NCBI GenBank assembly: GCA_965205865.1
Contig: CBDBHR010000026.1
Location: forward strand, 1-64,000
From: a bacterium
GTDB lineage: Bacteria; SAR324; NAC60-12
DNA: 64,000 nt
Direction: 5' to 3'
Position 1 is the first letter of the stretch; every line of letters begins with the position of its first letter. The notes under the pieces are model-generated. The model was given only the letters and a program-made list of their open reading frames with translations. It searched no databases and had not been told where the DNA came from. The position numbers and the translations under genes are program-made. Of this stretch, positions 5,016-48,892 are shown piece by piece.

Positions 5016-5043
5016 TAGCAAGCAACGATCAATGGGGAGTGAT

Positions 5044-20396: not shown

Positions 20397-20921
20397 ATGA
20401 GAAGATTTTGGATCATTTGGTTGATGGGAGGAGTGAGCTTTTTGCTGAGCCATGGGGCAGTTTATGGGCAACAAATGCTCGGATTTACCCAGGAAGATCG
20501 AGAGCGCATCATTCGGCTGGAAACCACCTTAAATCTCTTTATGGAAGCTACCGATCAACGCTTTGAACAGGTGGACCAGCGCCTTCTCGAATTACGGGAA
20601 GATATGAACAACCGCTTTGCGCAGATGATGACCATGTTGCAACTGATTGCCGGCATTTTTACCGCCCTGACTCTGGGAGTGATCGGCTTTGCTTATTGGG
20701 ATCGACGCACCATTATTCGCAAAGCAAAACAAGACACCCTGGAAACGCTGGCGGGGGAGGCCGCCCCTAAAGAATAAGCGATCATCGACCGGGCTGTGGC
20801 TCGAGCGGTGCAAGAAATCAAAAAAGACAATCGTCTGCAAGACTTGCTCTCGGCTTTACGCAAACTGGCCGTCACCGACCCGCCTCTGGCCAACGTGCTC
20901 AAAGAATTTCATTTATTGTAG
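20397..20921 (+). pseudogene. Coiled-coil membrane protein copy 1 with premature stop
   Basis: GAA->TAA at 20775-20777 relative to copy 2; homologous frame continues to TAG 20919-20921. Confidence 0.8.
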
Positions 20922-21354
20922 TTTTCATCACGCTCCTCAAAACAGTATTCCACCAATGAAGTCCTCAAATGTTGTTTTGAAATGGGGTCATTCATTACCA
21001 CCTCCTCTTTTTGAAGGCCAAAAGAACACGTTAAGAGAGCTTTCAGAAAGTGAGCGCAAGATCTATGAGGAGCAACTATTTTTATGGCGCTCGCCTCCAT
21101 TGAGGATCACACAAAAGAAAAGATGGCAAGTGGTTTCGCGACACGGAAGACAGAAAACGGGGAACCCTCGAAGCTGTCCCCCATCCCGGAGGCAAGTATG
21201 CTAAAAAAAATGGCGGAAGTCTGGCAGGCACCACCCGCTGGCCTTAAGGAAAAGAGAGCTTGCATGACCCCCATATTGGATCGCACGATTGCAGGAAAGG
21301 AAAAACAGTGGTAAACTGGTGGCCGTTATTTCAGATTGAGGAAAAAAAGAGGTT

Positions 21355-22062
21355 ATGAGAAGATTTTGGATCATTTGGTTGATTGGAGGAGTGAGCTTGT
21401 TGCTGAGCCATGGTGCAGTTTATGGGCAACAAATGCTCGGATTTACCCAGGAAGATCGAGAGCGCATCATCCGGCTGGAAACCACCTTAAATCTCTTTAT
21501 GGAAGCCACCGATCAACGCTTTGAACAGGTGGACCAGCGCCTTCTCGAATTACGGGAAGATATGAACAACCGTTCAGAGCAGGTGGACCAGCGCCTTCTC
21601 GAATTACGGGAAGATATGAACAACCGTTCAGAGCAGGTGGATCAGCGCCTTCTCGAATTACGGGAAGACATAAACAAACGCTTTGAACAAGTAGATAAGC
21701 GCTTTGTCGAATTACGGGAAGACATGAACAAACGCTTTGAACAAGTAGATAAGCGCTTTGAACAGATGATGAATACCTTGCAACTGATTGCCGGCATTTT
21801 TACCGTCCTGACTCTGGGTGTCATCGGATTTGCCTATTGGGATCGACGCACCATTATTCGCAAAGCAAAAGAAGAGACCCTGGAAACGCTGGCAGGGGAG
21901 GCCGCCCCTAAAGAAGAAGCGATCATCGACCGGGCAGTGGCTCGAGCGGCGCAAGAAATCAAAAAAGACCATCGTCTGCAAAACTTGATCACTGCTTTAC
22001 GCAAACTGGCTGCCACCGACCCGCCGCTGGCCAACGTGCTCAAAGAATTTCATTTATTGTAG
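21355..22062 (+). CDS. Signal peptide + coiled-coil stalk + TM anchor protein (architecture reminiscent of DUF1640/CCDC90-like proteins)
   Basis: N-terminal hydrophobic segment, 18-aa repeats, TM LIAGIFTVLTLGVIGFAYW followed by DRR. Confidence 0.75.
   Translation: MRRFWIIWLIGGVSLLLSHGAVYGQQMLGFTQEDRERIIRLETTLNLFMEATDQRFEQVDQRLLELREDMNNRSEQVDQRLLELREDMNNRSEQVDQRLLELREDINKRFEQVDKRFVELREDMNKRFEQVDKRFEQMMNTLQLIAGIFTVLTLGVIGFAYWDRRTIIRKAKEETLETLAGEAAPKEEAIIDRAVARAAQEIKKDHRLQNLITALRKLAATDPPLANVLKEFHLL
21520..21756 (+). repeat. Intragenic tandem repeat, 4 x 54 bp + 21 bp
   Basis: Units encode (F/S)EQVD(Q/K)R(LL/FV)ELRED(M/I)N(N/K)R. Confidence 0.95.
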
Positions 22063-22219
22063 CTTCCATCACGCTCCTCAAAACAGTATTCCACCGATGA
22101 AGTCCTCAAATGTTGTTTTGAGGTTCTGCCTCGTTCCATGTTTGGAGAGAGGAATGCTTGTAGCGCTCCGCACTCCTGATTCTTTCCAAACTTTCAAGCT
22201 TGACCCCGAAATAAAGTAA

Positions 22220-22387
22220 ATGGATATACAAACTGAAAAACATAGGGGCGTAGACAAGGGACTGGTAACAGTATTTCTCAAAATGTCACCGGAAGCGCGT
22301 CTTGAGTCGAATGACAATGCTTCGAGCACTATTTTGGAGTTAAGGAATGCCTACCAACATCAAAAAATCAACAAGAATAGATCTTAG
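22220..22387 (+). CDS. Small protein (55 aa), putative partner of a nucleotidyltransferase
   Basis: My translation MDIQTEKHRGVDKGLVTVFLKMSPEARLESNDNASSTILELRNAY...; GVD..L...L.MSPE.RL pattern as I recall it upstream of minimal nucleotidyltransferases; overlaps next start. Confidence 0.55.
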   Translation: MDIQTEKHRGVDKGLVTVFLKMSPEARLESNDNASSTILELRNAYQHQKINKNRS

Positions 22388-22480
22388 CGCATTACTTGAA
22401 AAACTTCTTGAATCCAATGTTGAGTATATTCTGGTTGGTGGACTGGCGCTGTTATTCAAGGAGCGCCGATTACAACTTGG
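22347..22480 (+). pseudogene. 5' remnant of a nucleotidyltransferase gene
   Basis: AAGGA SD + ATG; LLEKLLESNVEYILVGGLA then, after a frameshift, (A)VIQGAPITT.DI. Confidence 0.65.
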
Positions 22481-22677
22481 ACATCGAGGATATTGAACAG
22501 GCAATTCTCAATGGACACATTGCCGGCATAGAAAAAAAGGATCCAAGAGGAACAAAATATGTGCTGGAAGGCATTGGCTCTGATGGGGTTACTCCAGTTG
22601 GGAGTGTGGGTCGTTTCACCAGCACAGAACGTTATTTGATTATCACAGTTTATGAAATCTCCGCATCTCGAGGATGA
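22477..22677 (+). pseudogene. DUF4258-like toxin, 5'-truncated
   Basis: LDIEDIEQAILNG...DPRGTKYVLEG...LIITVYE; usual N-terminal HA..M helix is absent. Confidence 0.65.
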
Positions 22678-22681
22678 GATT

Positions 22682-22939
22682 ATGTATGGTTATCAATGTG
22701 AATACTGCGAAGGTAAAGTGCAACCACGGCAGGTGGGACGTGAGGCATTTAAACATAAAAATGGCTTTGTTATTTTAGAAAATATCATCGTAGGTGTCTG
22801 TGATTTTTGTGGCAATCGGTATTACAATGCCAATCTCCTGCGCACTGTTCATGAGATTGCCTCAGGCAAGAAGAAGCCTGAACGAACAGAGCAGATCCCT
22901 GTTGCGGATTTGATATCCGCCAGCCCGGAGATGGGCTGA
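22682..22939 (+). CDS. YgiT/MqsA-type zinc finger protein
   Basis: CEYC...GVCDFCGNRYY; typical DUF4258 partner. Confidence 0.8.
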   Translation: MYGYQCEYCEGKVQPRQVGREAFKHKNGFVILENIIVGVCDFCGNRYYNANLLRTVHEIASGKKKPERTEQIPVADLISASPEMG

Positions 22940-22989
22940 CAATTAACGAGTCGGCATTGACAGAAGAGGAACGGGCCAGGCTCCGCTTA

Positions 22990-23931
22990 TCAATTGAAAG
23001 GGTTGATCAGTCTGGCCAGGAAGCCTCGTTTGCGTTTCACCACCGCAGTGCCGTAACTGCCCTCACCGCCCCGCAGCCTGGGGTCGAGCAGGTCCCTGAG
23101 GGCGTCACCGAACATGTTGAGGGAATAGACGGTAATCGTCAGGAATAGCCCCGGCCAGAGCGCCAGCCAAGGGGCCGCCTCCATGTAGTTACGCCCTTCG
23201 CGGCTGAGCAGACCTCCCCAGCTGGGAACCTCGATGGGCAGCCCGAATCCGAGAAAGCTCAGCGACGCCTCGGCAATGATGACGCCACCGATGTTGATGC
23301 TGAAGATAATGATGATCGGCGCCATGATATTGGGCAGGACATGGCGGATCAGGATTAGGCTCGTGGGGGTGCCCAGGGCTTTGGCTGCCAGAAAATAATC
23401 ATTCTCTTTGACACCGATCACGGCGCTTCTGACGGTTCTGGAACCCCCGATGCCTCCGGATACGCCCAGGACCACAATGATCTGGAGGAGACCCTGGCCC
23501 ACGATGGACATGATGGTTAACAAGAGCAGCAGTCCTGGAAAAGCCATCCAGGCATCGACAAAGCGTTGCGCAACCAGATCCGGTTTGCCTCCCAAGAATC
23601 CGAAAATGCCGCCAATCAGGACCGCGACGATCACATTGAGCGCCGTCGCGGCCAGACCGACGGTTAAGGAAATGCGCGCCCCGACGATCAAGCGGCTCAG
23701 GAGGTCTCGCCCCAAATGGTCGGTCCCCAGGAGATACTGGGTGGAGGAGCTTGTCAGCCGGTCTGGAAGGTGTCGTTTTCTATAGTCATGGGGTGCCAAC
23801 ACATCGGCAAAGATCGCCACCACAATAAAGAGCAAGACGATCATCCCGCAGGCCGTCCCCAGGGGCTTCTCCCGCCAAAGCCTGATGAAGAAATCCGCAA
23901 ACCGGCCTCGTCGCTTGGGCTCACTACTCAT
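22990..23931 (-). CDS. Peptide/nickel ABC transporter permease (DppC/OppC-like)
   Basis: LGTDHLGRDLLSR, AAKALG..RHVLPN, EASLSFLGFG, GDALRDLLDPR. Confidence 0.93.
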   Translation of the reverse strand: MSSEPKRRGRFADFFIRLWREKPLGTACGMIVLLFIVVAIFADVLAPHDYRKRHLPDRLTSSSTQYLLGTDHLGRDLLSRLIVGARISLTVGLAATALNVIVAVLIGGIFGFLGGKPDLVAQRFVDAWMAFPGLLLLLTIMSIVGQGLLQIIVVLGVSGGIGGSRTVRSAVIGVKENDYFLAAKALGTPTSLILIRHVLPNIMAPIIIIFSINIGGVIIAEASLSFLGFGLPIEVPSWGGLLSREGRNYMEAAPWLALWPGLFLTITVYSLNMFGDALRDLLDPRLRGGEGSYGTAVVKRKRGFLARLINPFN

Positions 23932-24883
23932 ACCGCACCCTCGGATCCAAGAAGGCATAAATCAGGTCTATCATCAGGTTGATCCCCATCACCGCGGTGC
24001 CGAACACCAGATTGATGCCGGCGACCACCGGGTAGTCTCTGTCATTGAGGGCATCCAGCAGGAGACGACCGAGTCCCGGCAGGTTGAAGATGCTCTCGAT
24101 AATAACGGCCCCACCCACCAGGATAGGCAACTGCAGACCGATGGTGGTCACGATCGGGATGAAGGCATTCTTGACCGCGTGTCTCACGACCACCACCCGC
24201 TCCTTGAGCCCCTTGGACCAGGCGGTGCGGATGTAGTCCTGCCGCAGCACCTCCAGCATCATGGTGCGCGTCATGCGCATGGTAGCCGCCGCCGAGGCCG
24301 TCCCCAGAATCAGACTCGGAATGAGGAACATGCCAAGATTCCCCAGCGGGTCTTCGCTGAAGGTAATCAGCCGCATCGCCGGCGCCCAGCCCCACCAGAT
24401 AGCCGGGTAGATCATTACCATGAGGGCGAGCCAGAAGTTGGGCGTGGCCAGGCCCAGAACGGCGATGGAGCGCCCGGCGTAGTCGACCGCCGTATCCTGG
24501 CGAATTGCCGAGTAGATGCCGACCGGCAGGGCTATCAACAACCCAATGACGATTGCCATCACACCCAGCTCGATGGTGACTGGCAATCTCCCCAATATCT
24601 TTTCCTCTACCGACCAATCGCCCATCAGGGAGTTGCCAAGGGTGCCGTGCAGGAGAATACCTCCCAACCAGCGGCCGTACTGCACGTAGACCGGCTGGTC
24701 TAGTCCCAGCATCTGCTCGAGCGCTTCACGGTCGACCCCACCCACCCCCAAGTATGCCAACCTGTTCACCATTACGTCTATTACATCGCCTGGGATGAAG
24801 CGCACCGAGAGAAAGACCAGGATGCTCAGGATAAACAGGGTGGGGATGATGAGCAATAACCGCCTGATGATGTAAGCTCTCAT
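23924..24883 (-). CDS. Peptide/nickel ABC transporter permease (DppB/OppB-like)
   Basis: YIIRRLL, PGD, DYIRTAWSKGL, IESIFNLPGLG, DYPVV, LDPRVRY. Confidence 0.93.
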   Translation of the reverse strand: MRAYIIRRLLLIIPTLFILSILVFLSVRFIPGDVIDVMVNRLAYLGVGGVDREALEQMLGLDQPVYVQYGRWLGGILLHGTLGNSLMGDWSVEEKILGRLPVTIELGVMAIVIGLLIALPVGIYSAIRQDTAVDYAGRSIAVLGLATPNFWLALMVMIYPAIWWGWAPAMRLITFSEDPLGNLGMFLIPSLILGTASAAATMRMTRTMMLEVLRQDYIRTAWSKGLKERVVVVRHAVKNAFIPIVTTIGLQLPILVGGAVIIESIFNLPGLGRLLLDALNDRDYPVVAGINLVFGTAVMGINLMIDLIYAFLDPRVRYE

Positions 24884-24941
24884 ATCAGTCCAAGGGAACG
24901 AAGAGCCAGGAAGCTTGGGCCTCACGGCTCTCTCATAAACC

Positions 24942-27791
24942 CTAATGCCCCATTTCTTTCTTCAGCTCGCTATCAATCCAGAGGCGGGAGAAGATAAGCA
25001 AACGGTCCTGTAGTCCGAGCCAGGTTTCACCGTTAAAACCTATGACCCACGGCTGGTGCGCCATGAACTTTCCAGCTTTAGGACCCCATATCCACCAGTG
25101 GTTCTCCATGGTGTACATATCCACCTCTTTGACCAGCCCCTGCTGCTGCTCAATGGAGGTAGCGGCTTGGGCGGCTTCAATAAGGGAGTCCAACTCTGGG
25201 TACCCGATTCCGTGGTAGTTATTAACGCCGGTCGAGGAAGCAAAGTTGAGTATGTTCGTCAGAGGGCCAGTATTTGAGCCCAGTACGGTCCCGAACATAC
25301 CCTCCCAAGCACGTTCCGTTCGAGTAGCGCCCTCAGTAGCTCCGTCCATTACGTTAATCTCTACATCAACGCCAATATCAGCCCAGTATGAGGCAGCTAA
25401 TTCACTATAACCTAAAGAAAATTTCTCGGGGTGGTTCAACACGGTCTTGAATCTCGTGCCGTCCGCACCGCGCGCATATCCGGCCTCATCCAGCAACGCT
25501 TCCGCCGCTTTCGGGTCATACATATAGCCACTCTTGACCTCTTCGGGCCACTCTTCGAAGGGGGTGAAATACCCGCTGAGGCCTTCCCCTAAGATACCCT
25601 GAGGCTGCCAGGCTGAAGTGCCCTTGTAGACGCTGCGGTCGATGCCCTCGAGGTCTAGTGCCATCTGCATGGCCTGGCGCACCCTGATGTCGTCAAACGG
25701 CGGCTTGGTTGCGTCAAGGCCATAAGAGTTTTCCGAACGGTCCAACCACGGCTCCAGCACGATTTCAGGGTTGGTCCGCCGGAGGCTATCAAGCACGTCC
25801 ACCGATGTGATATCAGAGGTCCCACCGGTGAAACCCAGGAAATCAATCTTACCGGTGCGCAGTCCCGCCAGACGTGTCGCTTCGTCTATAATAATCAGGT
25901 GCTGTAACTCGTCAAAGTAGGGCAACCGGTTCTCCGGGTATTTTTCGTCGTAGCCCCAGTAGTTAGGATTCTTGGTATGGGTTATAGAGCTGCCCTCGAC
26001 CCAGTCAGTCATTTCGTAGGGCCCGGTGCCGACCAGGTTCCTCCAGTCCTTGACGTCGCCATGTTGCTTGATTACCTCGGGGGGGTATATGAAGGTATTA
26101 GCCCAGACGCCAAGGAGACTTGCCAGCGCACCGAGTGGTGGTGGCTCCTTCAGCTTCATCACAACCGTATATTTGTCGGTGGCGGTTATCGATTCCCATG
26201 CGAGAGCGCTGAGACTCCACAGCGTCGGGGCAGGTTCGGCTTCACTAAACTCGGTCCCTGTCAATTTACTTCCCAAAAAGCGGTGAAAGGTGTATTCGAC
26301 ATCATCGGCAGTTAGCTCCCGACCGTTCATCGGTGGCTTATTATGCCAGTGAACACCCTGGCGGATGTGGAAGACATAGGTTTTATCGTCGGGCATTTCC
26401 CAGCTTTCTGCCAGATGCCCTCTTAAGGCAAATTCAGGTGTGTACGTGCTCCTGAAGGCAAATTCGTTCCTATCTATTCCCCAGTTCATGATTCCTAGCC
26501 TCTCTACAACGCCACTGACGGCCATTCCCACACCCCCATGGAGCGCGGCGTCAGCATGCGGAGGCTCGGCCGGATTGGCAAAGGTGAAAGTCCCGCCATA
26601 CTCCGGCGCGGTCACCATCTTGCCGGTGCTGGGATCTTTGACCATGTCCGAAGCGGCAAAGGTCAAGGCCGTGAAACCGAGTACAATCATGCTGATAAGG
26701 GCCAGCATGGAACGCCCTTTTGAGTTTCGATGATGATTTATCATAACGATCCTTTCTTTCATTTGAGAAAAAGTAAACCAAAAGCACCCTGCCTGGAAAC
26801 GTTCAAGCATCATTTCCGGCTGGGATAACGTTTTGAGTATGGTCAATCCATACGATTTCCGTTCCTGTGGGGCAACGGAAGTTAAAACCAATTGATCACA
26901 GGCCAGTTCCTGATCCAGGCGGAAGAGGGGATAGGCCAGATAGATCAACGGGTTGAACCAATAAATACACTTGAGCGCTAAGGCCCAAGCGGTGAAGAGA
27001 AAATCTTTGCGTTGCAGATGGGCCAGTTCATGAGCGAGAATATGTTCCATTTCGCGTTTGGAATAGAATTTGGCAAAATGGAGGGGCAGCACCAATTTGG
27101 GATGCAGCCATCCGATCACTGCAGGCCCTTGAATCCAGGCAGAGACGAACAGGTCCCCCTGGAACTTCAAGCCCATTTTGAGACACAGTTGCGCGAGCAA
27201 ACTTTTCATTTCCGGGGAAGGTTCCCGTTTCTCTTTCAGCAGTTGTTCATACAAACGAACATGTCGGAGTATCGTGACAAGCCCCATCATCACGAATCCC
27301 CCGAGCCAAACGAAAAAGATTATCTTCACGCCGTTTATTTGTACTTGAGAAAAAACGGGCCACCCGCCAACTGGGGCGGATGATGGGAAATCTTTAGGGG
27401 AGATACTTTGCTCACTGATGCGCTCTGCAGGGAAGGTTGATCCCCCTTCCTGCACCGCAGTTTTCATGGCTTCTATGCGAGCCGTATTCTCTGCATTGAT
27501 CTGTTTGAATAATGCTTCGGAAGCCGTGAGGGGCTTTTTGTTTTGCAGCAGGGCATACACCCCTTGCTGCATGTTGAAGTTATAAAGGATGGTTTGCCAG
27601 GAAGGGAGGAGACTGAGTTGGGTTTGGGGAGTCACCAGGATCATCATTTTAAGCGCCGGCAGCAGCCAAAGCGCGTAACTCCATTTTGCTCCGAAATAAC
27701 GAACCACCGGTTTGCGAATCACGAACACGAAAACGATTAAGAGACTGGACCACAGGGCGGCCTCAGCTAAACCATACAATAGAGTTGCCAT
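24942..27791 (-). CDS. Fusion: BlaR1/MecR1-type M56 metallopeptidase (aa ~1-350) + family 5 ABC solute-binding domain (aa ~385-949)
   Basis: YALWLL, GPAVIGWLHPKLVLP, HELAH (27018-27032), WFNP, ELACD, KERI; then TM; then PEYGGT, LAESWE, GVHWH..GRELTADDV, GTGPY, PFDDIRVRQAM; single uninterrupted ORF. Confidence 0.88.
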   Translation of the reverse strand: MATLLYGLAEAALWSSLLIVFVFVIRKPVVRYFGAKWSYALWLLPALKMMILVTPQTQLSLLPSWQTILYNFNMQQGVYALLQNKKPLTASEALFKQINAENTARIEAMKTAVQEGGSTFPAERISEQSISPKDFPSSAPVGGWPVFSQVQINGVKIIFFVWLGGFVMMGLVTILRHVRLYEQLLKEKREPSPEMKSLLAQLCLKMGLKFQGDLFVSAWIQGPAVIGWLHPKLVLPLHFAKFYSKREMEHILAHELAHLQRKDFLFTAWALALKCIYWFNPLIYLAYPLFRLDQELACDQLVLTSVAPQERKSYGLTILKTLSQPEMMLERFQAGCFWFTFSQMKERIVMINHHRNSKGRSMLALISMIVLGFTALTFAASDMVKDPSTGKMVTAPEYGGTFTFANPAEPPHADAALHGGVGMAVSGVVERLGIMNWGIDRNEFAFRSTYTPEFALRGHLAESWEMPDDKTYVFHIRQGVHWHNKPPMNGRELTADDVEYTFHRFLGSKLTGTEFSEAEPAPTLWSLSALAWESITATDKYTVVMKLKEPPPLGALASLLGVWANTFIYPPEVIKQHGDVKDWRNLVGTGPYEMTDWVEGSSITHTKNPNYWGYDEKYPENRLPYFDELQHLIIIDEATRLAGLRTGKIDFLGFTGGTSDITSVDVLDSLRRTNPEIVLEPWLDRSENSYGLDATKPPFDDIRVRQAMQMALDLEGIDRSVYKGTSAWQPQGILGEGLSGYFTPFEEWPEEVKSGYMYDPKAAEALLDEAGYARGADGTRFKTVLNHPEKFSLGYSELAASYWADIGVDVEINVMDGATEGATRTERAWEGMFGTVLGSNTGPLTNILNFASSTGVNNYHGIGYPELDSLIEAAQAATSIEQQQGLVKEVDMYTMENHWWIWGPKAGKFMAHQPWVIGFNGETWLGLQDRLLIFSRLWIDSELKKEMGH

Positions 27792-27811
27792 TTCAACACC
27801 TCCTCAATGGA

Positions 27812-28180
27812 TCATTCCATTTTGTCCAATAGTTTTTTCAACTCCTCGATCTCTTGCTTGGTCAATATTTCTTGCGCTGCAAAACTGAATAACAATTGAT
27901 GAGAGACTTTGCCACCAAACCAATTCTCCAAAAATTTTCTACTTTCCAATTGCAAATACGCTTTTCGGCTGAGCAGGGGATAATACAGATATTTTCTCTG
28001 CTCCTTTTTGAAAGCTAAAATCTCCTTCTTCAACAAGCGGTTCAACAGAGTCTTCACCGTCTTGGCCTGCCAGTCTTTTTGCGGTGAAATGACTTCAATC
28101 ACCTCTTGAGCAGATAATGGAGATCTTTCCCATATCACATCCATCACGACCCGCTCCGCATTGCTGATCTTTTTGGTCAT
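27812..28180 (-). CDS. BlaI/MecI/CopY family repressor
   Basis: ISNAERVVMDVIW...W...TVKTLLNRLLKK...YLYYPL...FGG; directly upstream of the M56 gene. Confidence 0.92.
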   Translation of the reverse strand: MTKKISNAERVVMDVIWERSPLSAQEVIEVISPQKDWQAKTVKTLLNRLLKKEILAFKKEQRKYLYYPLLSRKAYLQLESRKFLENWFGGKVSHQLLFSFAAQEILTKQEIEELKKLLDKME

Positions 28181-28375
28181 CCATTTCCCTTCATTTGTCT
28201 GGTTTGCATACGCAATCAAATAGATAGTCATTTCTGAAGAATTACATAGTTACTACGCACTCTTTACACCCGTTTAAATTTATTGGCATGAAATTGTATC
28301 TTATAATTCATTGAAATATTTGACTTATATGAGAAATTTGCAACGAATTCAAGCACGCAGAATCTGTTTTTACAT

Positions 28376-28386
28376 TACAGTCTGTA
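28376..28386. promoter_or_regulatory. Candidate BlaI-type operator TACAG-T-CTGTA (second copy 28801-28811)
   Basis: Palindrome with TACA/TGTA half-sites upstream of blaI; spacer is 1 nt longer than the classical TACA-N2-TGTA. Confidence 0.4.
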
Positions 28387-28437
28387 GTCTTCATCAGACA
28401 ACATTACAGGAAGAAATTTTAAAAAGCAAACTTTTTT

Positions 28438-28605
28438 TTATGCTGGATCGAAATTTAACAGTCGGTTCAACAGATTCTTCACCGTCTTGGCCTGCCAGTC
28501 CTTTTGCGGTGAAATGACTTCAATCACCTCTTGGGCCGATAGCGGCGATCTTTCCCAAAACGCCTTCATCACGACCCGCTCCGCATTGCTGATCTTTTTG
28601 GTCAT
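28438..28605 (-). pseudogene. Truncated blaI duplicate (55 aa)
   Basis: MTKKISNAERVVMKAFWE...NLLNRLL then diverges to a stop. Confidence 0.85.
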
Positions 28606-29154
28606 CCATTTCCTTTCATTCGTCTGGTTTGCATACGCAATCAAATAGATAGTCATTTCTGAAGAATTACAAAGATACTACACACTCTTTACATCCGTTT
28701 AAATTTATTGGCATGAAATTGTATCTTATAATTCATTGAAATATTTGATTTATATGAGAAATTTGCAAAGAATTCAAACACGCAGAATCTGTTTTTACAT
28801 TACAGTCTGTAGTCTTCATCAGACAACATTACAGGAAGAAATTTTAAAAAGCAAACTTTTTTTATGGTGGATCGAATTAATTTACGAGATGGGGAACGTT
28901 ATCTCTTCAGCAATCGAAATAATTGTTCTTCTTCAGGCGGTTAAATGAGCAATGCGCTCAAGGATGTCCGGAAGAAGTTGAGTTATTGACTGAAGGAATG
29001 TGATTGAAGCAGGCGGGAGTAGAAGAGAGGATCTTCGTCCGTGACGCGAGAGTATCCAGCCTCATCCAGGACAGTACCAGGCTCAAATGCATAGAATGTG
29101 TTAACATGAGATCGATTGAAAGCTGTTGACAAATGCATTTCAATCAAACCCTGA

Positions 29155-29200
29155 GTTGAGCGCTTCCGGAAAATCCGCTTCATTTCCGGAAGCGTTCAAC
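29155..29200. repeat. 18-bp inverted repeat (one G-U pair), 10-nt loop
   Basis: GTTGAGCGCTTCCGGAAA-N10-TTTCCGGAAGCGTTCAAC. Confidence 0.8.
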
Positions 29201-29282
29201 ATAGGGTGAAGAAAATCATTGATTTTAAAAATGAAAACCAACAGAGGTTGTTCCAAGACCGCAATTCAGAGAGAGCAGACTT

Positions 29283-29933
29283 ATGTCGTCCGGACAGATG
29301 ATTGGGAATGATGCCGACGCGGCGTTTTATTGGGTTGAAGCTCGCTGCGCGCTTGAAAGCGCCGATCCTGTACTTGGTGAATTGATCCGTGCAGCCAAAG
29401 GATCTGTTTTAAGGTCTCGGAACGATCCCTTCTTTTCACTGTCACGCTCAATAGTCGCCCAACAAATTTCCGTATTTGCCGCGGAATCGGTGTGGCAGAA
29501 ATTAATCACACATATCGGCGAAATGACACCGGACACGGTGGCGGATCAAACTGAGGACAGTTTGCGCAACTGCGGACTTTCCCGCTCCAAAGCAGGCTAT
29601 CTCAAAAATTTGGCGGAACACTTCATCAATGGCTCTCTCAATCAAGAGTCGTGGCATCACATGGACGATGAGGCGGTGATTGAATGCCTCACGCAGGTGA
29701 AAGGGATCGGGCGATGGACTGCCGAGATGTTCCTGATATTTCATTTGTTGAGACCTGACGTGTTTCCGGTAGCGGATATCGGCGTGCAAAAAGCTATTGC
29801 CATTCACTTCAACGATGGCATTCGTTCAGCTCCTGACGAAATGGTCTCGATTGCCGAACCTTGGCGACCATGGCGCTCGGTTGCCGTATGGTATCTTTGG
29901 CGCAGCCTCGACGCAGTACCCGTTGAATACTAG
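29283..29933 (+). CDS. alkA: DNA-3-methyladenine glycosylase II (AlkA/HhH-GPD)
   Basis: IVAQQIS, GLSRSK, KGIGRWTAEM..D, WRPWRS. Confidence 0.88.
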   Translation: MSSGQMIGNDADAAFYWVEARCALESADPVLGELIRAAKGSVLRSRNDPFFSLSRSIVAQQISVFAAESVWQKLITHIGEMTPDTVADQTEDSLRNCGLSRSKAGYLKNLAEHFINGSLNQESWHHMDDEAVIECLTQVKGIGRWTAEMFLIFHLLRPDVFPVADIGVQKAIAIHFNDGIRSAPDEMVSIAEPWRPWRSVAVWYLWRSLDAVPVEY

Positions 29934-39700: not shown

Positions 39701-40372
39701 GTGAAGTACCAGTTTGATTTGAAATGGAAGGACGTTGTTTTTCAAATGACCCGTGATGTCCTTCAAAAAAAAATTCCGCTTTCCCCCGAGGCATTCAACC
39801 GCCCACGGAGCAACTCGACTTTCCAAGCCTATTTCAGGCTGGCGGATCTTAAAAAACAGGACATTGTCAAGGAAATGCCCTTTTATTTTCCCATTGAATC
39901 GATCAGTGAGGAACATCTCATGACCGTCCTTTCCAACTGCCATCGATCGGAAAGCCAGCAGGCGTTGATACGTACGCTCCAACTATTGCAATTCAAAACG
40001 TTGCCAGGTTATATGAGAGGATTTCTGGATTTGGTGTTTTGTTACGAAGGACGCTACTTCATTCTCGATTGGAAATCGAATCTCCTGGGTTATCAGCGGA
40101 AGGATTATGCCTCGCACCTGCTGAAAGGCGAAGTGGAAAAGCATTTCTATGTCCTGCAGTATTACATTTATGCCGTTGCTCTGCATCGCTACTTGAAGCG
40201 TCGTCTGCCCGGTTATCGGTTCACTCGCCATTTTGGTGGCGTCTATTATTTCTTTCTGCGAGGAATTCAAGCCAACTCCGAAGATCTATTCGGCATTTAC
40301 CATGACCCTTTGTCGGATTCGGTGGAGGTGATCGAAGAATTGGATGCGGCATTTCAAGGTGAGCAACAATGA
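36725..40372 (+). CDS. recB: Exodeoxyribonuclease V beta subunit
   Basis: EASAGTGKT, DEFQDTD, GDPKQAIYSFRGAD, KGLEF, nuclease GFLDLVF..ILDWKSN. Confidence 0.96.
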   Translation: MIRDEFDLTACPLDGSSLIEASAGTGKTYAIVGIYLRLLMEKSIPVEKILVVTFTEAATAELKVRITGSIQQLLSVLQTGKTEEPLFKYFLEQQQDGSGERQNSAMRRLRRALFSFDEAPILTIHGFCHKMLSDFTFETNSTFDAKLLGNQEALIAESTQDYWRGQVYSTCQDYSRVFLEFFENPVDLSKEFKKIISRPRLRLHPQIEKRPHSILERVYRLFQRLQGYWNSQEESLSRWISENKIWRSDLQQKYFKQTRQYLENDDPFTSSAGLAKLTSTEIRKKYAGDTPLPEFFEQCDTFYRLKNSMRSAILVDYFQCVKTRLREKKRLLNVYSFDDLLQDFHAALQGEQGQALAHRVRRRITVALIDEFQDTDPIQYEIFSILFKQGNLFMIGDPKQAIYSFRGADVFAYLQAKQEAQRQFTLLTNWRSHPRLVEAIGHLFSAVEHPFVQETIPWFASRGASQNEDCSLYFEGKPVVPMRVWYLQAEKAVKVSDARQRITDATVAEIIRLLDSGAIKRAPSLQGKEIPEAMMRTKQQCQSLNLADIAVLVRTHREAEQVRDALSQKNIPSILKTQVSIFQTDEYQEILTIAHAIAEFHNTSLVKGALLTDIMGYSGGRVARNVAGSSHAIDSTIPWDEKFWDRIANRMADYHEQWKREGFYPMMRLFLSKEEVHKNLLVLHNGERRLTNVLHVIELLHQAESEGQWSMRSLLLRAHEMEQGTAESGEENLIRLETDADALKILTVHSCKGLEFPIVFCPFSWGSRRMDDIFFHDDTGRLVWDLEKEELHRKKCQEESLAEDIRLLYVALTRAKYCCYLAWGHINHSKLSPLTHLFGEGNAWDSLKKLESKSRGTVAVLQLPEGDSSTVRAENYHATELDGQSLQFEIFKQSLKQHWQVTSFSALSTRLRNSPFRMMETGQDHDQQETLTSGADESLLEDELLKDESMALSLLRFPAGAKTGKCLHELLEELDFQEQDEKIIKQKVEEKLVKYQFDLKWKDVVFQMTRDVLQKKIPLSPEAFNRPRSNSTFQAYFRLADLKKQDIVKEMPFYFPIESISEEHLMTVLSNCHRSESQQALIRTLQLLQFKTLPGYMRGFLDLVFCYEGRYFILDWKSNLLGYQRKDYASHLLKGEVEKHFYVLQYYIYAVALHRYLKRRLPGYRFTRHFGGVYYFFLRGIQANSEDLFGIYHDPLSDSVEVIEELDAAFQGEQQ

Positions 40373-42175
40373 GTCTTTCAGGGGGTAACGAGATGACGAA
40401 AGAGGCAGTTCGAGAAATGAAGATCAAGCATTTCAGTTCCCTGGAGCAGCATTTTGCCCGGAAAATGCTCCAACTTGCCGAGCAAGAATCTCCGGAACTC
40501 GAATTGGCCAGCGCCCTTCTCTGCCGTCAAGCTTCCCGGGGACACGTTTGTCTGGACTTGGAACAATTTATTGAGAACAAAGACGAAGCACTGCAAGATT
40601 TTCAAATCCCCTCCCGAGAAGAGTGGACTCGGATTCTGCAAAAAATGGCGGTGGTTGGCTCCCCAGGCGCAGCAACACCTTTGATCCTCGAGGAGCACGA
40701 AGGGCAGAAGTCTCCTTTATTTGAATCGTTACTGGCAATACGAAAATCGGCTCGTTACTCAACTGCTGGGACGTTTCCGGGAACCGCTTTTTTGGGACGA
40801 ATCCCTGTTGCAGGCAGGATTGGCGCAACTCTTCCCTCAATCTGCGGGGGAAGAAGATTTGCAGCGTAAAGCAACGGAAATGGCGTTGAGGAAGCGGTTC
40901 TGTATCATTTCCGGAGGACCGGGGACTGGCAAAACCACCATCGTGATTAAAATTCTGGCCTTGCTGGTCCAACAGGATGCCGGTATGAGGATTGCCATTG
41001 TTGCTCCAACGGGTAAGGCGGCAGCACGCCTTCAGGATTCCGTTTTGCGAGGAAAAGACGAGTTGACCGGTATCGGATTGCTCAGCAAGGAAGAAAGCGC
41101 TTTGCTCCCTGCGGAAGCCTCCACGATCCATCGCTTGCTGGGTTCTCGTAAAAATTCAGTCTATTTTCACCACGACCACTTGCGTCCGCTTCCTCTGGAT
41201 TGTTTGGTGGTCGATGAAGCGTCCATGGTGGATTTGGCATTGATGAGCAAGTTGGTAGATGCTCTGCCGCTTCAGGCGCGCCTGATCCTGGTGGGAGATC
41301 AGAACCAGTTGACTGCTGTGGAAGCAGGATCGGTTCTGACGGACCTTTGTGAGGAGTTTCCCGGAAAGCCTCAGAGGCTTCGTGAGAGCATCCTGCATTT
41401 GCAAAAAAGCCATCGCTTTGATGAACAAAAAGGGATTGGGCGCCTCAGCCGCGAGATCAATCGGGTAAACGTGAATGCAGCCTGGAATCTTCTCCGGCAA
41501 GATCAACAAGAACTAAAATGTCGTCGCCTGCCATCGCCTTCCTTACTCCATCAGCGTCTCAGGGAGGAAGTGCTCCCCGCTTTCCGAGCTTATTTGTCGT
41601 TTCAAAAAGAGTCCCTGGAAAACTTGTTTGACGTTTTTCGCTCCTTCATGGTTCTATCTCCCCTGCAACGGGGCCCATACGGGTCTCAGTCCCTCAATCG
41701 CATATTGGAAGCGTTTCTGAGAGAAGAAAAATGTATTAGCGAAGACAGTGATTGGTATCCCGGACGTCCATTGATGATCCTACGCAACGACTACGACCTG
41801 CAACTGTATAACGGAGACATCGGGATTGTCTGGCAAGATCCCGGCCAAAGTCAGCGCATGGTTTACTTTGAAAAGGAAAAGGGTGGATCGAGTCGTGGAT
41901 TTCGTGCCGTTGCCCCGGCTCGATTACCGGAACATGAAACGGTGTTTGCCATGACAGTGCACAAAAGTCAGGGTTCTGAATTCGACAAGATCCTGCTTAT
42001 TTTGCCGGATTCTGAAAATGAAATCCTCACTCGAGAGTTGCTCTATACGGGAATCACCCGCGCGCGGAATTCTTTAACTTTGTGGACGGAAGAAGCGGTG
42101 TTCAAAAAAACTGCTCAGAAACGATCTAAACGCAGCTCCGGACTGCAAGAAAAACTGCGCCAAGCAATATCGTAG
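40369..42175 (+). pseudogene. recD: Exodeoxyribonuclease V alpha subunit with +1 frameshift near 40700-40710 (real or sequencing error)
   Basis: N-part GHVCLDL..PLIL in one frame; LYLNRYWQYE, GGPGTGKT, DEASM, TVHKSQGSE in the next. Confidence 0.85.
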
Positions 42176-42272: not shown

Positions 42273-45200
42273 TTATCCGGAAAAGAGATCGGGTGGCAGA
42301 TCCCGGGTGGAGATCGTCTCCCCGGCTCCCTGGTGGTAGGTCCTGGTGAAGATCGTTTCCGAGAGCCATTTACGGAATGAAGAATTGTCGCTGAACTGCT
42401 TGAAGAGTTCGGTATGGTCGGAAAGCAGGTCGATCACGGCTCGTTCGAGCGCATTGTCGTGTTCGATGCGCGCATTCTGTTTATCGGAGTTTCTCATGGC
42501 ATTCCGATAGGACTGGTCGGCAGCGACCTTCACCGGCAGTTCTTCAACGATTATCTTGCCAATCTTGTCGGTATCCTTCCACTCGATGTTGCCGAACATT
42601 TCATTGAAAGTCTCGAGAATCTTGCTCAGGTGGTCGAGCTCCGAATCCGGCTTCCGGCCACCCTCACTGGTCGGCACCGGATCAATCTCCGCATCCGTAT
42701 CGGGTAGCGCGATTGCCATTGTGGCCTGCACCTCGGCCCGGTAGCTGTCCATGTCGATTGCCTCGAGAATGCCTTTGGAAAGGTCCTGCTCTTCCGGTGC
42801 GGGCAACTTGGGCGTCAGGAAGGTCAAGAAGATGGAACGTTTTTCCCATCCCGCATTTGTATATGGCAGGATCGAGGCGAGGAATCCATAAGTCCGCGTA
42901 AACGCCTTTGCTTTGCCCTTGAAATCGACTTGACCGTCCTCGTCGAGATCGGATTTGTAAATCGCGACACAGACGTCCAGGATCGGGTCGAGTTGATCAC
43001 GGTCAGCCCCTTGCGCGTAAAGCGCGACCAAGGTTTCCACCTGCTCCTGGTTGTAGACCTGATAGCCATCGAGGTCGGTCTGCAGATCGTGCAGCTTGTT
43101 CGGGTCCGTCTCTTCGCTGAGGATTGTGGTCCGATAATAGGGCTCGAACGATTCACTTATGCCCTCCACGTCGTTCATGAAATCCAGCACGAAGCTGTCA
43201 TACTTTTGTGGATGCGCACGATTCAATCGGGAAAGCGTTTGCACCGCTTTGACCCCCGACAGCATTTTGTCCACGTACATCGTGTGCAGGAGGGGTTCGT
43301 CGTAACCGGTCTGGAATTTTTCGGCGACGATCAGGAATCGGTACGGCTCCTCCCTGATCAACTCTGCGATGCGGCTGCCGGGAAACCCGTTCAGGGAGGC
43401 TTCGGTCACCTTCCGGCCGGCATAGTCGTAATCCCCCGAGAATGCCACGATGGCCCGGTAAGCGCTCTTACGCTCCTTTAGATAGTCCTGGAAGGTATGA
43501 AAGTACCGGATCGCCCGCTCAATACCACCAGTCACTACCATGGCCCGCGCCCGACCGCGAATCTTACGGTGCGCAATGACCTGATCATGGAAATGATCGA
43601 TCATGATTTCCGTTTTCTGGCGGATGGCGTGCTCGTGGGACTCGACGTATCGCCGGAGCTTCTTCCTGGCTCGCTTGCTGTCGAACTGCGGATCTTCAGC
43701 CACCGTTTTCATCAGTTGGTAGTAGCTCTCGACGGGCGTATAATGCTGGAGCACGTCCAGGATGAAGCCTTCCTCGATCGCTTGCTTCATCGTGTAACCG
43801 TGAAAGGGGACGTGCCTGACCCGGTCGCCTGCTGACAGGGGACGGCCGAAAATCTCCAGTGTTTTGTTTTTCGGTGTTGCCGTGAAGGCAAAATAGCTGG
43901 CATTCGCCAGCATTTTTCGAGCTTGCATGAGATTGTTGATCCGGTCCTCGAGCGTTTCCTCCTCTTCCTTGCCTGCTCCATCCGATGAGAGCGCCATGTT
44001 CATCTTTGTCGAAGTTTGACCTCCCTGGCTCGAATGGGCTTCATCGATGATGATAGCGAATCTCCGCTGCCGATGCTCGTCGTCGATCTCATCGAGGATG
44101 AAGGGAAACTTCTGCACGGTAGTGATGATGATCTTCTTCCCGTTCTTCAGAAACTGTTTCAGGTCGCCTGAGCGATTGGCATGGCCGACCACCGATGAGA
44201 CCTGGGCGAATTGCTTGATGGTGTCCCGGATCTGTTTATCCAGAACCCGGCGGTCCGTCACCACGATGACCGAATCGAATACCGGCAGACTGGTTTGCTT
44301 CAGTCCGATGAGTTGGTGTGACAACCAGGCAATCGAGTTGCTTTTCCCGGAGCCTGCCGAGTGTTGGATCAGGTAGCGCTCGCCGACGCCTGCAACTTGC
44401 GCGTGGGCCAGCAATTGACGCACGACGTCGAGTTGGTGATAGCGTGGCCAGATTTGCACCCTCTTTTTGTATCCGGTTTTCTCGTCCTTCGTCTCGATAA
44501 TCTGGGCGTAGTTTTGCAGGATGTCACTCAAGCCATCCCGTGTCAGGATGCGTTTCCACAGGTAGTCGCTCTTGAGACCGTTCGGGTTGGGAGGATTGCC
44601 CGTGCCGTTGTTCCAACCCTGATTGAAAGGCAGAAACCACGATGCTTTTCCCTGGAGGTGGGTGCAGAAACGCGCCTCGTGGTCATCCACCGCGAAATGC
44701 GCCACGCAACGACCGAACCCGAAGAGCTTTTCACGCGGGTGGCGATCGCGTTTGTACTGTTGGACGGCATCTTCTACGGTTTGCTTGGTGAGGCTGTTCT
44801 TCAACTCCAAGGTCGCAACCGGCAGACCATTGAGGAAGAGGGCGAGATCAAGCGCCAACTGGGTTTCGTCCAGGCTGTAGCGAAGCTGTCGCGTGACCGA
44901 GAAGCGGTTCAGTTGGTAGAGCGTCCTGGCCTTCTCGTTGCCCTCCGTCGGCGTACCGTAGAAGAGATCGATATGATAAGCGCCGTGCTTGAGACCCTTG
45001 CGCAAGACGTCGATGGTGCCGCGTCTGTTGATTTCTCCTTGCAGTCGCGCCAGGAATTTACGCTGCGCCGGGCCGTCCCGGGCGGGATCAAGCGTTTCGA
45101 AAATCTCGGGTTGCGTCTCCCGTAAAAAGGTAGAGAGCTGAGCCAGATCCACGCAGTACTCGCGGTTGTAGTCGTTCGGGTTGCCCCCGATCCAGCCAGC

Positions 45201-45317
45201 GCCATACATGGCCGCTCGCTCGCTTACCGTACCCTGCTGTGACGGATCACAGGAATGGCCGGTCAGCGCGATGCAGATGAGGTCTTCAAGACCGCGTTCA
45301 GTGGTGTCGGTGGTCAT
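42273..45317 (-). CDS. hsdR: Type I restriction endonuclease subunit R
   Basis: D..LFLNGLP...LELK nuclease, HSAGSGKS, DEAH, FTATP, TGYDEP, QTLSRLNR. Confidence 0.93.
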   Translation of the reverse strand: MTTDTTERGLEDLICIALTGHSCDPSQQGTVSERAAMYGAGWIGGNPNDYNREYCVDLAQLSTFLRETQPEIFETLDPARDGPAQRKFLARLQGEINRRGTIDVLRKGLKHGAYHIDLFYGTPTEGNEKARTLYQLNRFSVTRQLRYSLDETQLALDLALFLNGLPVATLELKNSLTKQTVEDAVQQYKRDRHPREKLFGFGRCVAHFAVDDHEARFCTHLQGKASWFLPFNQGWNNGTGNPPNPNGLKSDYLWKRILTRDGLSDILQNYAQIIETKDEKTGYKKRVQIWPRYHQLDVVRQLLAHAQVAGVGERYLIQHSAGSGKSNSIAWLSHQLIGLKQTSLPVFDSVIVVTDRRVLDKQIRDTIKQFAQVSSVVGHANRSGDLKQFLKNGKKIIITTVQKFPFILDEIDDEHRQRRFAIIIDEAHSSQGGQTSTKMNMALSSDGAGKEEEETLEDRINNLMQARKMLANASYFAFTATPKNKTLEIFGRPLSAGDRVRHVPFHGYTMKQAIEEGFILDVLQHYTPVESYYQLMKTVAEDPQFDSKRARKKLRRYVESHEHAIRQKTEIMIDHFHDQVIAHRKIRGRARAMVVTGGIERAIRYFHTFQDYLKERKSAYRAIVAFSGDYDYAGRKVTEASLNGFPGSRIAELIREEPYRFLIVAEKFQTGYDEPLLHTMYVDKMLSGVKAVQTLSRLNRAHPQKYDSFVLDFMNDVEGISESFEPYYRTTILSEETDPNKLHDLQTDLDGYQVYNQEQVETLVALYAQGADRDQLDPILDVCVAIYKSDLDEDGQVDFKGKAKAFTRTYGFLASILPYTNAGWEKRSIFLTFLTPKLPAPEEQDLSKGILEAIDMDSYRAEVQATMAIALPDTDAEIDPVPTSEGGRKPDSELDHLSKILETFNEMFGNIEWKDTDKIGKIIVEELPVKVAADQSYRNAMRNSDKQNARIEHDNALERAVIDLLSDHTELFKQFSDNSSFRKWLSETIFTRTYHQGAGETISTRDLPPDLFSG

Positions 45318-45836
45318 CAGGGAGGACTCCATTCAAAGCGAACTCCAAAATCGTGAAGCATTTTGAAGGTATTGTCCTATTCAACATTGAACTGCCAGCA
45401 CAAGTTGGGTATTGGCACTCTTCTTTACTTCTGGTTGGAATATTTCCTGAGTCACTACAATTGCGTCGTGAACCATGGCGTAGGCGGCGACCCACCCATC
45501 GGCCACAATGGCAAATTCGTCTTTTGCAGCCTGCAGGAATTGGTCATTGTGCTGGACCCATAACTGCATTTTAGAGAAAGCATCGACGACTTGTTGCTCA
45601 GCAGATGTTAAAAATAATTCTGTTGGCGCCTGACGCACCCAACTGGCTAACTCATCCCCATTCAGTATTTCGTTTCGGACTCGATCAATACTAAGCACTC
45701 GGCCTTGTTGAGAATAGTGTGTCAGGACATCCCAGAAACCCGGACACAGACTCAGAGGATAATAACTGCGATACGCTGCGATGAAAACATTTGTATCTAA
45801 TAAGTATGGTTTAATCAGAGAAATTTGAGACGTCAT
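45317..45836 (-). pseudogene. DUF4411-like PIN-domain protein with 3' frameshift and nonsense codon
   Basis: YLLDTNVFI, CPGFW, ADGWVAAYA; true tail RVPIPNLCWQFNVE*DNTFKML.. lies in another frame ending in TGA that overlaps the hsdR ATG. Confidence 0.75.
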
Positions 45837-47004: not shown

Positions 47005-47040
47005 AATACATGTCTTCAAAGGTTAGGAAGGATGACGCTT

Positions 47041-48846: not shown

Positions 48847-48892
48847 TTTTTAACCGTCGAGACATTGAATCTGTCTGTATCGCTATATTGTA

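Follow-up and report, generated by a model that had tools for sequence, protein, structure and literature searches.

The locus described here raises the question of what a BlaR-type membrane protease may sense when a solute-binding protein (SBP) stands in the place of its penicillin-binding domain. In the window, which is the whole stretch of 64,000 nucleotides (nt) analyzed (contig CBDBHR010000026.1, positions 1 to 64,000), an operon of four genes on the minus strand (22990-28231) encodes, in this order, a BlaI-type repressor (blaI), a fusion of an M56 zinc protease with a family-5 SBP, and two ATP-binding cassette (ABC) permeases (permB and permC). Our assessment, held at slightly better than even, is that blaI and the fusion form a proteolytic pair of the BlaI/BlaR family in which a family-5 SBP has taken over the position of the penicillin sensor, and which heads an operon of Opp/Dpp/Nik-type permeases.

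Organization of the operon

The preliminary description of this stretch placed four open reading frames (ORFs) on the minus strand in this region, and ORF calls and translations bear out their positions. The blaI gene, read from an ATGACC start, encodes 122 amino acid residues (27812-28180) and is followed by the fusion ORF of 949 residues (24942-27791), which carries PF05569 and PF00496 and is preceded by a GGAGG ribosome-binding site. Downstream, permB encodes 319 residues from its probable start at MRAYII (23924-24883) in an ORF that extends to 24925, and permC (22990-23931, likewise from a probable start) lies in an ORF that extends to 23958. The spacing of these consecutive ORFs, with 20 nt between blaI and the fusion, 58 nt between the fusion and permB and an 8-nt overlap between permB and permC, fits a single operon.

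The two last genes had been described as DppB/DppC-like permeases, and both carry a BPD_transp_1 domain. In the DppB/NikB-like PermB this domain (E 1.6e-33) is accompanied by the N-terminal domain of the family, and in the DppC/NikC-like PermC (E 4.1e-26) by OppC_N. The best NCBIfam models were Opp2B and NikB for PermB, both below their cut-offs, and Opp4C and Opp1C for PermC; all NCBIfam transporter models remained below cut-off for the operon proteins.

The M56 protease half of the fusion

The preliminary description read the 949-residue ORF as a complete M56 module joined through a transmembrane (TM) helix to a family-5 SBP, and Pfam scores far beyond chance agree with it. The BlaR-type module comprises residues 1-382 (26646-27791, minus strand, as are all features of the operon given below), and Peptidase_M56 (PF05569) matches residues 8-351 with 191.2 bits against a cut-off of 31 (E 3e-56), covering profile positions 3-296 of 296. 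The HELAH, ELACD and KERI motifs listed in that description are all present, at residues 254-258, 295-299 and 345-348. HELAH (27018-27032), the zinc-binding and catalytic motif, aligns to HEYAH of BlaR1, and ELACD (E295-x3-D299; 26895-26909), the second gluzincin motif, aligns to EVEAD, with DQELACD paired with DNEVEAD in the sequence alignment of the M56 half with BlaR1. The corresponding BlaR1 motif is given as E242xxxD (PMC9834060). Residues H254, E255, H258, E295, and D299 are invariant in eight fusions and in 40 M56 sequences, and C298 is also invariant in these 40 M56 sequences.

TM segments were located by hydropathy at residues ~8-25, 37-54 (weaker), 154-175, and 362-380, with K/R-rich stretches at 26-36 and 176-361. 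Hydropathy, charge and the helices of the AlphaFold2 model predict four TM helices, with the zinc protease in the cytoplasm and the SBP outside it, which is the topology of BlaR1. According to hydropathy and charge, the loop between TM2 and TM3 is extracellular and has 98 residues (55-152; 27336-27629); its first half, here called EL1a (residues 55-99; 27495-27629), is near-invariant. On the cytoplasmic side, a loop with GCFWFTFSQMK (residues 331-345; 26757-26801) was aligned to LSHSFNGKKS of BlaR1, so that GCFWFTFSQMKERI of the fusion aligns with the BlaR1 autocleavage region LSHSFNGKKSLLKRRL. TM4 (residues 362-380; 26652-26708) ends in TFAA|S and is the positional equivalent of the signal peptide of stand-alone SBPs.

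The only solved structure that matches the M56 half by sequence is BlaR1 of Staphylococcus aureus (PDB: 8exp, E 2.6e-8). An AlphaFold2 model of the whole fusion, built on a 99-row alignment, has a mean predicted local distance difference test (pLDDT) value of 85.8, with the TM/protease core and the SBP mostly above 90, and low confidence at loop residues 56-92 and 116-144, at residues 336-338 and at the linker 378-381. Since the fold search with the full-length model returned only SBP matches among the best 50, the M56 half was modeled and searched apart (pLDDT 80.5), and all six PDB fold matches at E≤0.001 were S. aureus BlaR1 structures. A complex prediction between the M56 and SBP halves, run without controls, scored 0.12 in relation to a mark of 0.32 and speaks neither for nor against their contact. 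No penicillin-binding (transpeptidase-like) domain was found in residues 383-949, and the fusion is therefore no BlaR1 or MecR1 proper; the NCBIfam model blaR1_generic (NF000326) matches residues 156-376 only, with a score of 138.5 against a cut-off of 400.

The solute-binding half and its ligand

The family-5 solute-binding domain occupies residues 383-949 (24942-26645, stop codon included), and SBP_bac_5 (PF00496) matches residues 457-857 with 226.3 bits against a cut-off of 32 (E 8.4e-67). In comparisons with PDB the E value was 3.5e-27 for the single sequence and 3e-43 for the family profile (HbpA/DppA). The two-lobed family-5 fold is kept and this half is intact: target TM-scores range between 0.69 and 0.86 for its superposition on DppA, GbpA, OppA, and NikA, and the highest belongs to DppA in the DppABCDF complex (PDB: 8z1z, target TM-score 0.86). 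The closest solved relatives, DppA, HbpA/GbpA, and OppA, show 17-24% identity in the fold search.

The family-profile alignment to DppA (PDB: 1dpp) tentatively places His (TVLNH) and Ser (LGSN) of the window SBP at the positions of DppA R355 and D408, which we take to be the residues that anchor the termini of the dipeptide. With both anchoring residues apparently replaced, a peptide was set aside as ligand, and a standard free-ended dipeptide would not be an obvious candidate.

Distribution and conservation of the fusion

The search for PF05569 together with PF00496, proposed in the preliminary description, shows that the fusion recurs in 10 protein clusters and in three loci of another genome. 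A word-indexed whole-protein search of 5.8 billion proteins listed 120 matches, 10 of which are clusters with both domains: seven at full length (58-83% identity) and three partial. The other 110 matches listed are stand-alone SBPs of ~600 residues, whose identity to the SBP half is 52-94%. A query with the M56 half alone (proteins of 521-1661 residues; best 120 of 128 matches) returned the same 10 fusions, with 74-93% identity. Beyond them, M56-half identity is 44% or less among the matches listed, and the C-termini contain TonB_C, TPR, ankyrin or other domains. Against 1.84 billion cluster representatives, phmmer found one close match to the M56 half, the M56-only protein P0234 (394 residues, 81% identity), and the next match had an E value of 1.2e-40 and 33% identity. 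Among the 150 phmmer matches listed, the 25 of 820-1130 residues that were scanned carry no SBP_bac_5 domain, and show instead Laminin_G_3, PD40, BNR, LRR, HlyD, Secretin, CarboxypepD_reg, HEAT or SecDF-P1. No further protein with both M56 and SBP5 domains was found in the whole-protein, M56-half or phmmer searches.

A scan of 185,579 species genomes located the fusion in one record only, the 4.26-Mb chromosome OZ242383.1 of a metagenome-assembled genome (MAG), at three loci (L001-L003, the sister loci); the fourth match was an unrelated M56 protein of Lachnospiraceae. In the four loci, window included, blaI ends 20 nt before the ATG of the fusion. The window ClpB is 87% identical to that of OZ242383.1, and its named relatives among the matches listed bear SAR324-cluster names (67-77%), except for Deltaproteobacteria bacterium TL4 (69%), which identifies the host as a SAR324-like bacterium, presumably one with two membranes. 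The architecture is genuine yet rare, and confined to one narrow uncultured lineage.

Ratios of nonsynonymous to synonymous substitution (dN/dS) were obtained by the Nei-Gojobori method, comparing the window with the three copies of the MAG. The blaI gene shows values of 0.08-0.17, the M56 half 0.26-0.47 and permB 0.16-0.25, so that purifying selection acts on blaI as well as on the M56 half.

Conservation by segments was analyzed in nine full-length fusions, as mean pairwise identity and number of invariant columns. The highest values belong to the autocleavage-like loop 331-345 (0.95, 13 of 15 invariant) and TM4 (residues 362-380; 0.95, 17 of 19), followed by TM1-2 (0.92, 44 of 54) and EL1a (0.92, 36 of 45). 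The protease core (residues 153-330) shows 0.79, with 104 of 178 columns invariant, the second half of the extracellular loop (residues 100-152) 0.67, with 15 of 53, and the SBP (residues 401-949) 0.54, with 137 of 549. The likely signaling elements, EL1a, the loop 331-345 and TM4, are thus the most constrained parts of the protein. By alignment with BlaR1, each signaling element of the latter appears to have its counterpart in the fusion, and these counterparts to be what the fusion conserves best. In relation to L003, EL1a shows proportions of synonymous differences (pS) of 0.35-0.38 and of nonsynonymous differences (pN) of 0.05-0.07, with pN/pS of 0.12-0.19; since pN is low while pS reaches these values, EL1a is conserved by selection and not by recency. 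The second half of the loop is almost neutral, with pN/pS of ~0.7-1.0 in diverged pairs.

The BlaI-type repressor and the promoter region

The window BlaI matches Penicillinase_R (PF03965) with 111.3 bits against a cut-off of 22.6 (E 4.4e-32) over 114 of 115 profile positions, and aligns at full length to MecI (PDB: 1okr, E 1.9e-19) and BlaI (PDB: 1sd4, E 2.3e-16). It contains both the winged-helix Penicillinase_R domain and the C-terminal dimerisation region, but does not reach the cut-offs of specific NCBIfam repressor models (BlaI_of_BCL, 105.4 against 180). A longer ORF of 139 residues extends to 28231, and the start of the 122-residue form at 28180 matches the sister loci. BlaR1 is reported to cleave BlaI directly at Asn101|Phe102 (PMC9834060); the residues of the window BlaI at this scissile position are S99|F100 (27881-27886), in LLFS|FAAQE vs LVLN|FVEKE.

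The promoter/operator region of the operon (28181-28452, minus strand) contains two candidate palindromic operators: TACAGACTGTA at 28376-28386, with the form TACA-N3-TGTA, and the dyad TGTAAT-N14-ACTACA at 28383-28408. From AAAAAAGTTTGC onward the region is near-identical to that of L001. A direct tandem repeat of 425 bp (28454-28876, minus strand), 93% identical to 28029-28452, duplicates the promoter region together with codons 1-55 of blaI, after which the frame ends in a stop. It leaves a truncated helix-turn-helix ORF (blaI') and supplies a second copy of the candidate operator, and TACA-N3-TGTA (TACAGACTGTA) is found exactly twice in the 64 kb, once per promoter copy. A dyad of the form TGTAAT-N12-14-AyTACA is present upstream of blaI in three of the four loci, in both copies of the window, once in L001 and twice in L003, whose promoter has otherwise diverged, and nowhere else in the 132 kb examined. 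The pattern was derived from the same sites on which it was scored, and it is a lead and not an independent test.

Recombination of the blaI-M56 module

The copies of the blaI-M56 module are 74-95% identical to one another, and the SBPs attached to them ~54%. The M56 halves of the window and L001 share 95% of their protein and 96% of their DNA sequence, with SBP halves at 55%, and the nucleotide identity of this pair collapses near nt 1200 of the gene (~codon 400), just past the conserved APEYGGT. Residues 383-949 of the window fusion differ in a single residue from the stand-alone SBP P0007, an unfused protein cluster with 14 member sequences, which has its own signal peptide ending in AVAA|EKK where the fusion reads TFAA|SD. 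In a tblastn comparison with the window, the P0007 leader and upstream ORF extension gave a weak match at the TM4/linker region alone, which does not show orthology with the P0007 locus. P0014, a copy of the window-type SBP, carries a frameshift, and the M56-only P0234 diverges inside TM4.

A quick maximum likelihood tree of the SBPs was generated with IQ-TREE on the basis of 66 domains: 12 fused, two with a TM4 tail and 52 stand-alone, these 54 unfused rows being our selection from the ~110 matches listed plus P0384. The fused state needs seven changes on this tree, at least five of them forced by branches with SH-aLRT≥95. The tree pairs the window with P0007 (100), P0010 with the unfused P0384 (100), and P0006 with P0086 (94). 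The two proteins with a TM4 tail, P0080 and P0384, are TM4-anchored SBPs in which a short leader precedes a tail of SQMKERI, TM4 and linker, starting just past the autocleavage-like loop. P0384 (L001 18209-20071) directly precedes its own permease pair, and this separate operon shows the same 8-nt permease overlap as the window.

The GC content at third codon positions climbs along the operon, from 0.53 in blaI to 0.56 in the M56 half, 0.64 in the SBP half and 0.72-0.80 in the permeases, vs ~0.48 in the ClpB, acetyl-CoA synthetase and RecC genes, and L001-L003 display the same step from M56 to SBP half. By composition, the transport genes are either foreign to the remainder of the window or constrained in a different way. 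Taken together, the mosaic identity, the P0007 twin, the SBP tree, the unfused derivatives and the shared promoter lead us to conclude that recombination at the TM4/linker sequence has repeatedly joined a unit of promoter, blaI and M56 module to different SBP paralogues and separated it from them.

The regions downstream of the fusions in the sister loci (L001 12842-17900; L002 13787-19937; L003 14338-18597) contain transposases (YhgA-like, IS21, and Mutator) together with pieces of SBP and permease genes and a fragment of pyruvate phosphate dikinase.

Two alternative explanations arise from these data. In the first, which we regard as quite improbable, the M56 half is mainly a processing and anchoring device: it would insert the SBP and then release it, in TM4-anchored or free form, by autocleavage in the GCFWF loop and/or a signal-peptidase cut at TFAA|S, and the turnover of BlaI would report how far the SBP is synthesized or processed, or its docking to the transporter, more than the binding of a solute. 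The autocleavage-like loop and TM4 are indeed the most conserved segments, P0080 and P0384 begin just past that loop with the SQMKERI...TM4 tail, and BlaR1 is described to cleave itself at Ser283|Phe284 and to lose its sensor to signal peptidase just after TM4 (PMC9834060). However, a plain signal peptide suffices in most paralogues, a protease of 380 residues together with a repressor would be a costly anchor, and the strong constraint on EL1a points to transmembrane signaling.

In the second, there is no working system and no regulatory role, and the fusion would be a side effect of recombination in a genome rich in repeats and transposases, or the window copy would be an assembly chimera of an M56 paralogue with an SBP paralogue, joined at the conserved linker. 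The virtual identity of the SBP half to an unfused SBP would fit this explanation, as would an M56 half whose closest copy lies in another genome, the truncated blaI' duplicated upstream, and a lineage that holds transposases, permease fragments, the M56-only P0234 and the frameshifted P0014. We consider it very improbable, because the architecture is present in 10 clusters and four loci with intact reading frames, the catalytic residues are invariant, blaI, the M56 half and, most of all, EL1a show purifying selection, and the spacing between blaI and the fusion is identical in every locus. These points speak against a loss of function for the family, but the junction of this window may still be chimeric.

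Proposed mechanism and its weighing

According to the reading preferred here, that of a BlaI/BlaR-type pair with an SBP as sensor, BlaI would bind the TGTA/TACA dyads upstream of blaI and hold the operon at a basal level. The fusion is predicted to lie in the inner membrane by four TM helices, with a cytoplasmic protease and a periplasmic SBP, and its homology with BlaR1 suggests that it should be a ligand-gated protease for the neighboring BlaI. Binding of the solute would close the SBP, alter its contact with EL1a and shift TM3 and TM4, activating the protease; this would cut BlaI near S99|F100, and blaI, the fusion and the permeases would be derepressed. Less firmly, the same SBP probably also feeds the permeases, either tethered by TM4, which is presumably how its stand-alone TM4-anchored paralogues act, or released at TFAA|S or at the autocleavage-like loop, because the window operon has no other SBP and because TM4 and the linker anchor stand-alone SBPs elsewhere. 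The ATPases would be encoded elsewhere.

A more specific form of this proposal joins two ideas. In BlaR1, the extracellular loop EL1 is described as sitting in the ligand site of the sensor, from which the beta-lactam displaces it and thereby moves helix alpha3 and the protease (PMC9834060). By analogy, EL1a could fill the cleft of the resting SBP as a pseudo-ligand until the real solute expels it, after which autocleavage or a signal-peptidase cut would free the same domain as the binding protein of the transporter. The promoter-blaI-M56 unit would in addition be a portable regulator, which homologous recombination at the conserved TM4/linker sequence can place before any paralogous SBP, making it the ligand sensor of an uptake operon that induces itself. 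As a joint claim of portability, pseudo-ligand signaling and release, this appears unlikely to hold in full.

Several observations weigh against the preferred reading. Its three functional steps, the triggering of BlaI cleavage by ligand, the repression of the operon by BlaI and the double role of the SBP in sensing and transport, are all inferred. At the proposed scissile bond of BlaI the Phe at P1' is kept, but the Asn at P1 is replaced by Ser. The core operator published for the family, TACAnnTGTA (PMC7253601), has no match in its canonical form TACA-N2-TGTA in the window or in L001-L003, and L002 shows neither palindrome nor dyad upstream of blaI, its sole TACA-N3-TGTA being ~9 kb downstream of the fusion. 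Generic scans of 21900-29300 gave seven promoter-like sites vs 6.9 expected and 12 terminator-like sites vs 8.1 expected, which is at chance level; one promoter-like site lies inside the fusion, at 26740-26769. The SBP half shows a high dN/dS of 0.5-0.66, near saturation. The junction of the window fusion was seen nowhere else, its SBP half being found unfused in P0007, and this copy may result from a very recent recombination or from an assembly chimera at the conserved linker of ~60 nt.

The transport side weighs in the same direction. No ABC ATPase was found among the 54 scanned ORFs of the window, nor in the 10-kb flanks of L001-L003 except for an unrelated Liv-type system upstream of L001. 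The transporter is therefore incomplete as encoded in the window: of the two permeases and two ATPases that accompany a family-5 SBP, the permeases are there and the ATPases are not. The preliminary description proposed to look for blaI and permease genes as neighbors of the fusion; blaI is directly upstream in the three sister loci, but both permeases follow none of the three sister fusions. In L001 the fusion has no permease gene directly behind it; in L002 and L003 the first permease alone is present, and transposases come next. Either the link between fusion and transport is unconserved or the sister loci are decaying, and the flanks of L001-L003 do appear rearranged or decaying. Of the candidate sensor-transporter system first described, the architecture stands as genuine, recurrent and selected, whereas the missing ATPase genes and the partial loss of permeases in the sister loci tell against its completeness.

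A further explanation, which we regard as unlikely, is that the fused SBP is a sensor only and delivers no solute, as with SBP-like domains in some sensor kinases. Free or TM4-anchored paralogous SBPs of similar specificity, such as the P0007 type, would feed the permeases, and cleavage of BlaI would only report the presence of the solute. The near-identical secreted form P0007, the great number of stand-alone paralogues and the lack of reliable permeases after the sister fusions are in its favor, and signaling from SBPs to receptors in the membrane has ample precedent (PMC8050422). On the other hand, it would leave the permeases of the window without a partner encoded in the operon, which has no other SBP, and TM4 with its linker is also the anchor of stand-alone SBPs directly before a permease pair. 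The mechanism of the preliminary description, in which the binding protein of the transporter is itself the sensor and induces its own uptake operon, is in sum plausible and partly supported.

Other features of the window

A gene for a coiled-coil protein (~190-235 residues, with weak apolipoprotein-like Pfam matches) is repeated at 20397-21204 and 21355-22062 (plus strand), convergent to the operon, and copies with 75-94% DNA identity are found downstream of every sister fusion (L001 13384-13933 and 17161-17891; L002 21427-22106; L003 19149-19801). Directly past the operon lie two small overlapping ORFs (22396-22677 and 22652-22939, plus strand), the first with DUF4258, which may be a toxin-antitoxin-like pair. 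At 2092-5156 (minus strand) two adjacent ORFs each show a C-terminal PDZ_3 domain, and trypsin-like protease domains were matched only in the second (3555-5156) at the threshold used.

After intact recC and recB genes, recD is split in two overlapping ORFs in different frames (plus strand), 40369-40869 with RecD_N and 40721-42175 with the helicase domains, and is a frameshift pseudogene or a sequencing error. A defense-type island at 42273-61020 contains a type I restriction-modification system (HsdR 42273-45332, HsdS 49750-51006, HsdM 59038-61020), a pair of DUF4411 and M78-peptidase genes (45381-46571), a DDE transposase (53554-54684), a HATPase_c_3 protein (54693-56684), and a Dcm methylase with a Vsr endonuclease (56218-58262). 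No tRNA genes and no Rfam families at gathering score were found in the whole 64 kb.

Relation to known systems and significance

The fusion is a member of the wider BlaIR family, that is, an M56 protease beside a BlaI-like repressor encoded upstream. With BlaR1/BlaI of S. aureus and Bacillus licheniformis and with MecR1/MecI it shares the adjacent BlaI-type repressor gene, the four-TM M56 gluzincin with HExxH and ExxxD motifs, the extracellular loop between TM2 and TM3, the cytoplasmic loop aligned to the autocleavage site, and the C-terminal sensor after TM4. It differs from them in having as sensor a family-5 SBP, which binds reversibly in Venus-flytrap fashion, instead of a penicillin-binding domain that becomes acylated, and in having ABC permeases downstream instead of a beta-lactamase or PBP2a. 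Further differences are an extracellular loop of ~98 residues vs 56-96 in BlaR1, and Ser instead of Asn at P1 of BlaI.

A survey from 2026 counts ~15,000 M56 proteins in 254 architectures, ~6% of them with a penicillin-binding domain and 96% near a BlaI gene (PMC13492132). CenIR of Clostridioides difficile, PvmSR of Pseudomonas aeruginosa (PvmS: preprint 10.64898/2026.08.03.742534) and mycobacterial BlaIR likewise combine an M56 protease devoid of that domain with a BlaI-like repressor, but their sensors are short, disordered or absent, whereas that of the fusion is large and well folded and belongs to a ligand-binding family whose chemistry is known. The nine common architectures that the survey names do not include SBP_bac_5, the full list of 254 perhaps standing in its supplements (PMC13492132). 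The preliminary description knew of no characterized system with this architecture, and our literature search found no paper describing an M56-SBP fusion; however, BlaR-like proteins with other sensors are already the known majority, and the novelty is less than categorical.

As signaling partners of SBPs, a review lists chemoreceptors, kinases, cyclases and Ser/Thr kinases, with DppA-Tap and CBP-ChiS as family-5 cases, and it nowhere uses the words "protease" or "BlaR" (PMC8050422). In CBP-ChiS of Vibrio (CBP being the chitin-oligosaccharide-binding protein) and DppA-Tap of Escherichia coli, as proposed for the fusion, the family-5 SBP of an ABC importer is also the signal input for gene regulation or behavior (PMC8050422). 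Unlike these systems, where a free periplasmic SBP docks non-covalently on a kinase or chemoreceptor, the fusion has its SBP covalently bound to a protease, with irreversible cleavage of a repressor as the would-be output. The nearest functional analogue is CBP-ChiS, where the SBP of a transporter doubles as the input of a regulator. In relation to Opp/Dpp/Nik (PepT-type) importers, the operon shows the family-5 SBP gene followed by two BPD_transp_1 permease genes with the usual 8-nt overlap; it differs in the absence of DppD/DppF-type ATPase genes from operon and window, and in an SBP that is TM-anchored instead of free or a lipoprotein.

Most BlaR-like proteins are not beta-lactam sensors, and the signal is known for almost none of them, as far as the survey reports (PMC13492132). 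The sensor of the fusion is a folded SBP of a family amenable to standard ligand screens, and the same protease module is found naturally on several SBPs. This would make it testable what a non-canonical BlaR senses, how such a protease may be switched on by reversible non-covalent binding as opposed to acylation, and how general the model of extracellular-loop displacement in BlaR1 is. The fusion further illustrates how a regulatory cassette can be moved from one transporter paralogue to another. If the preferred reading is true, it adds regulated proteolysis of a repressor to the known routes of SBP signaling through kinases, chemoreceptors and cyclases, and the cell probably switches on an uptake operon when the nutrient appears.

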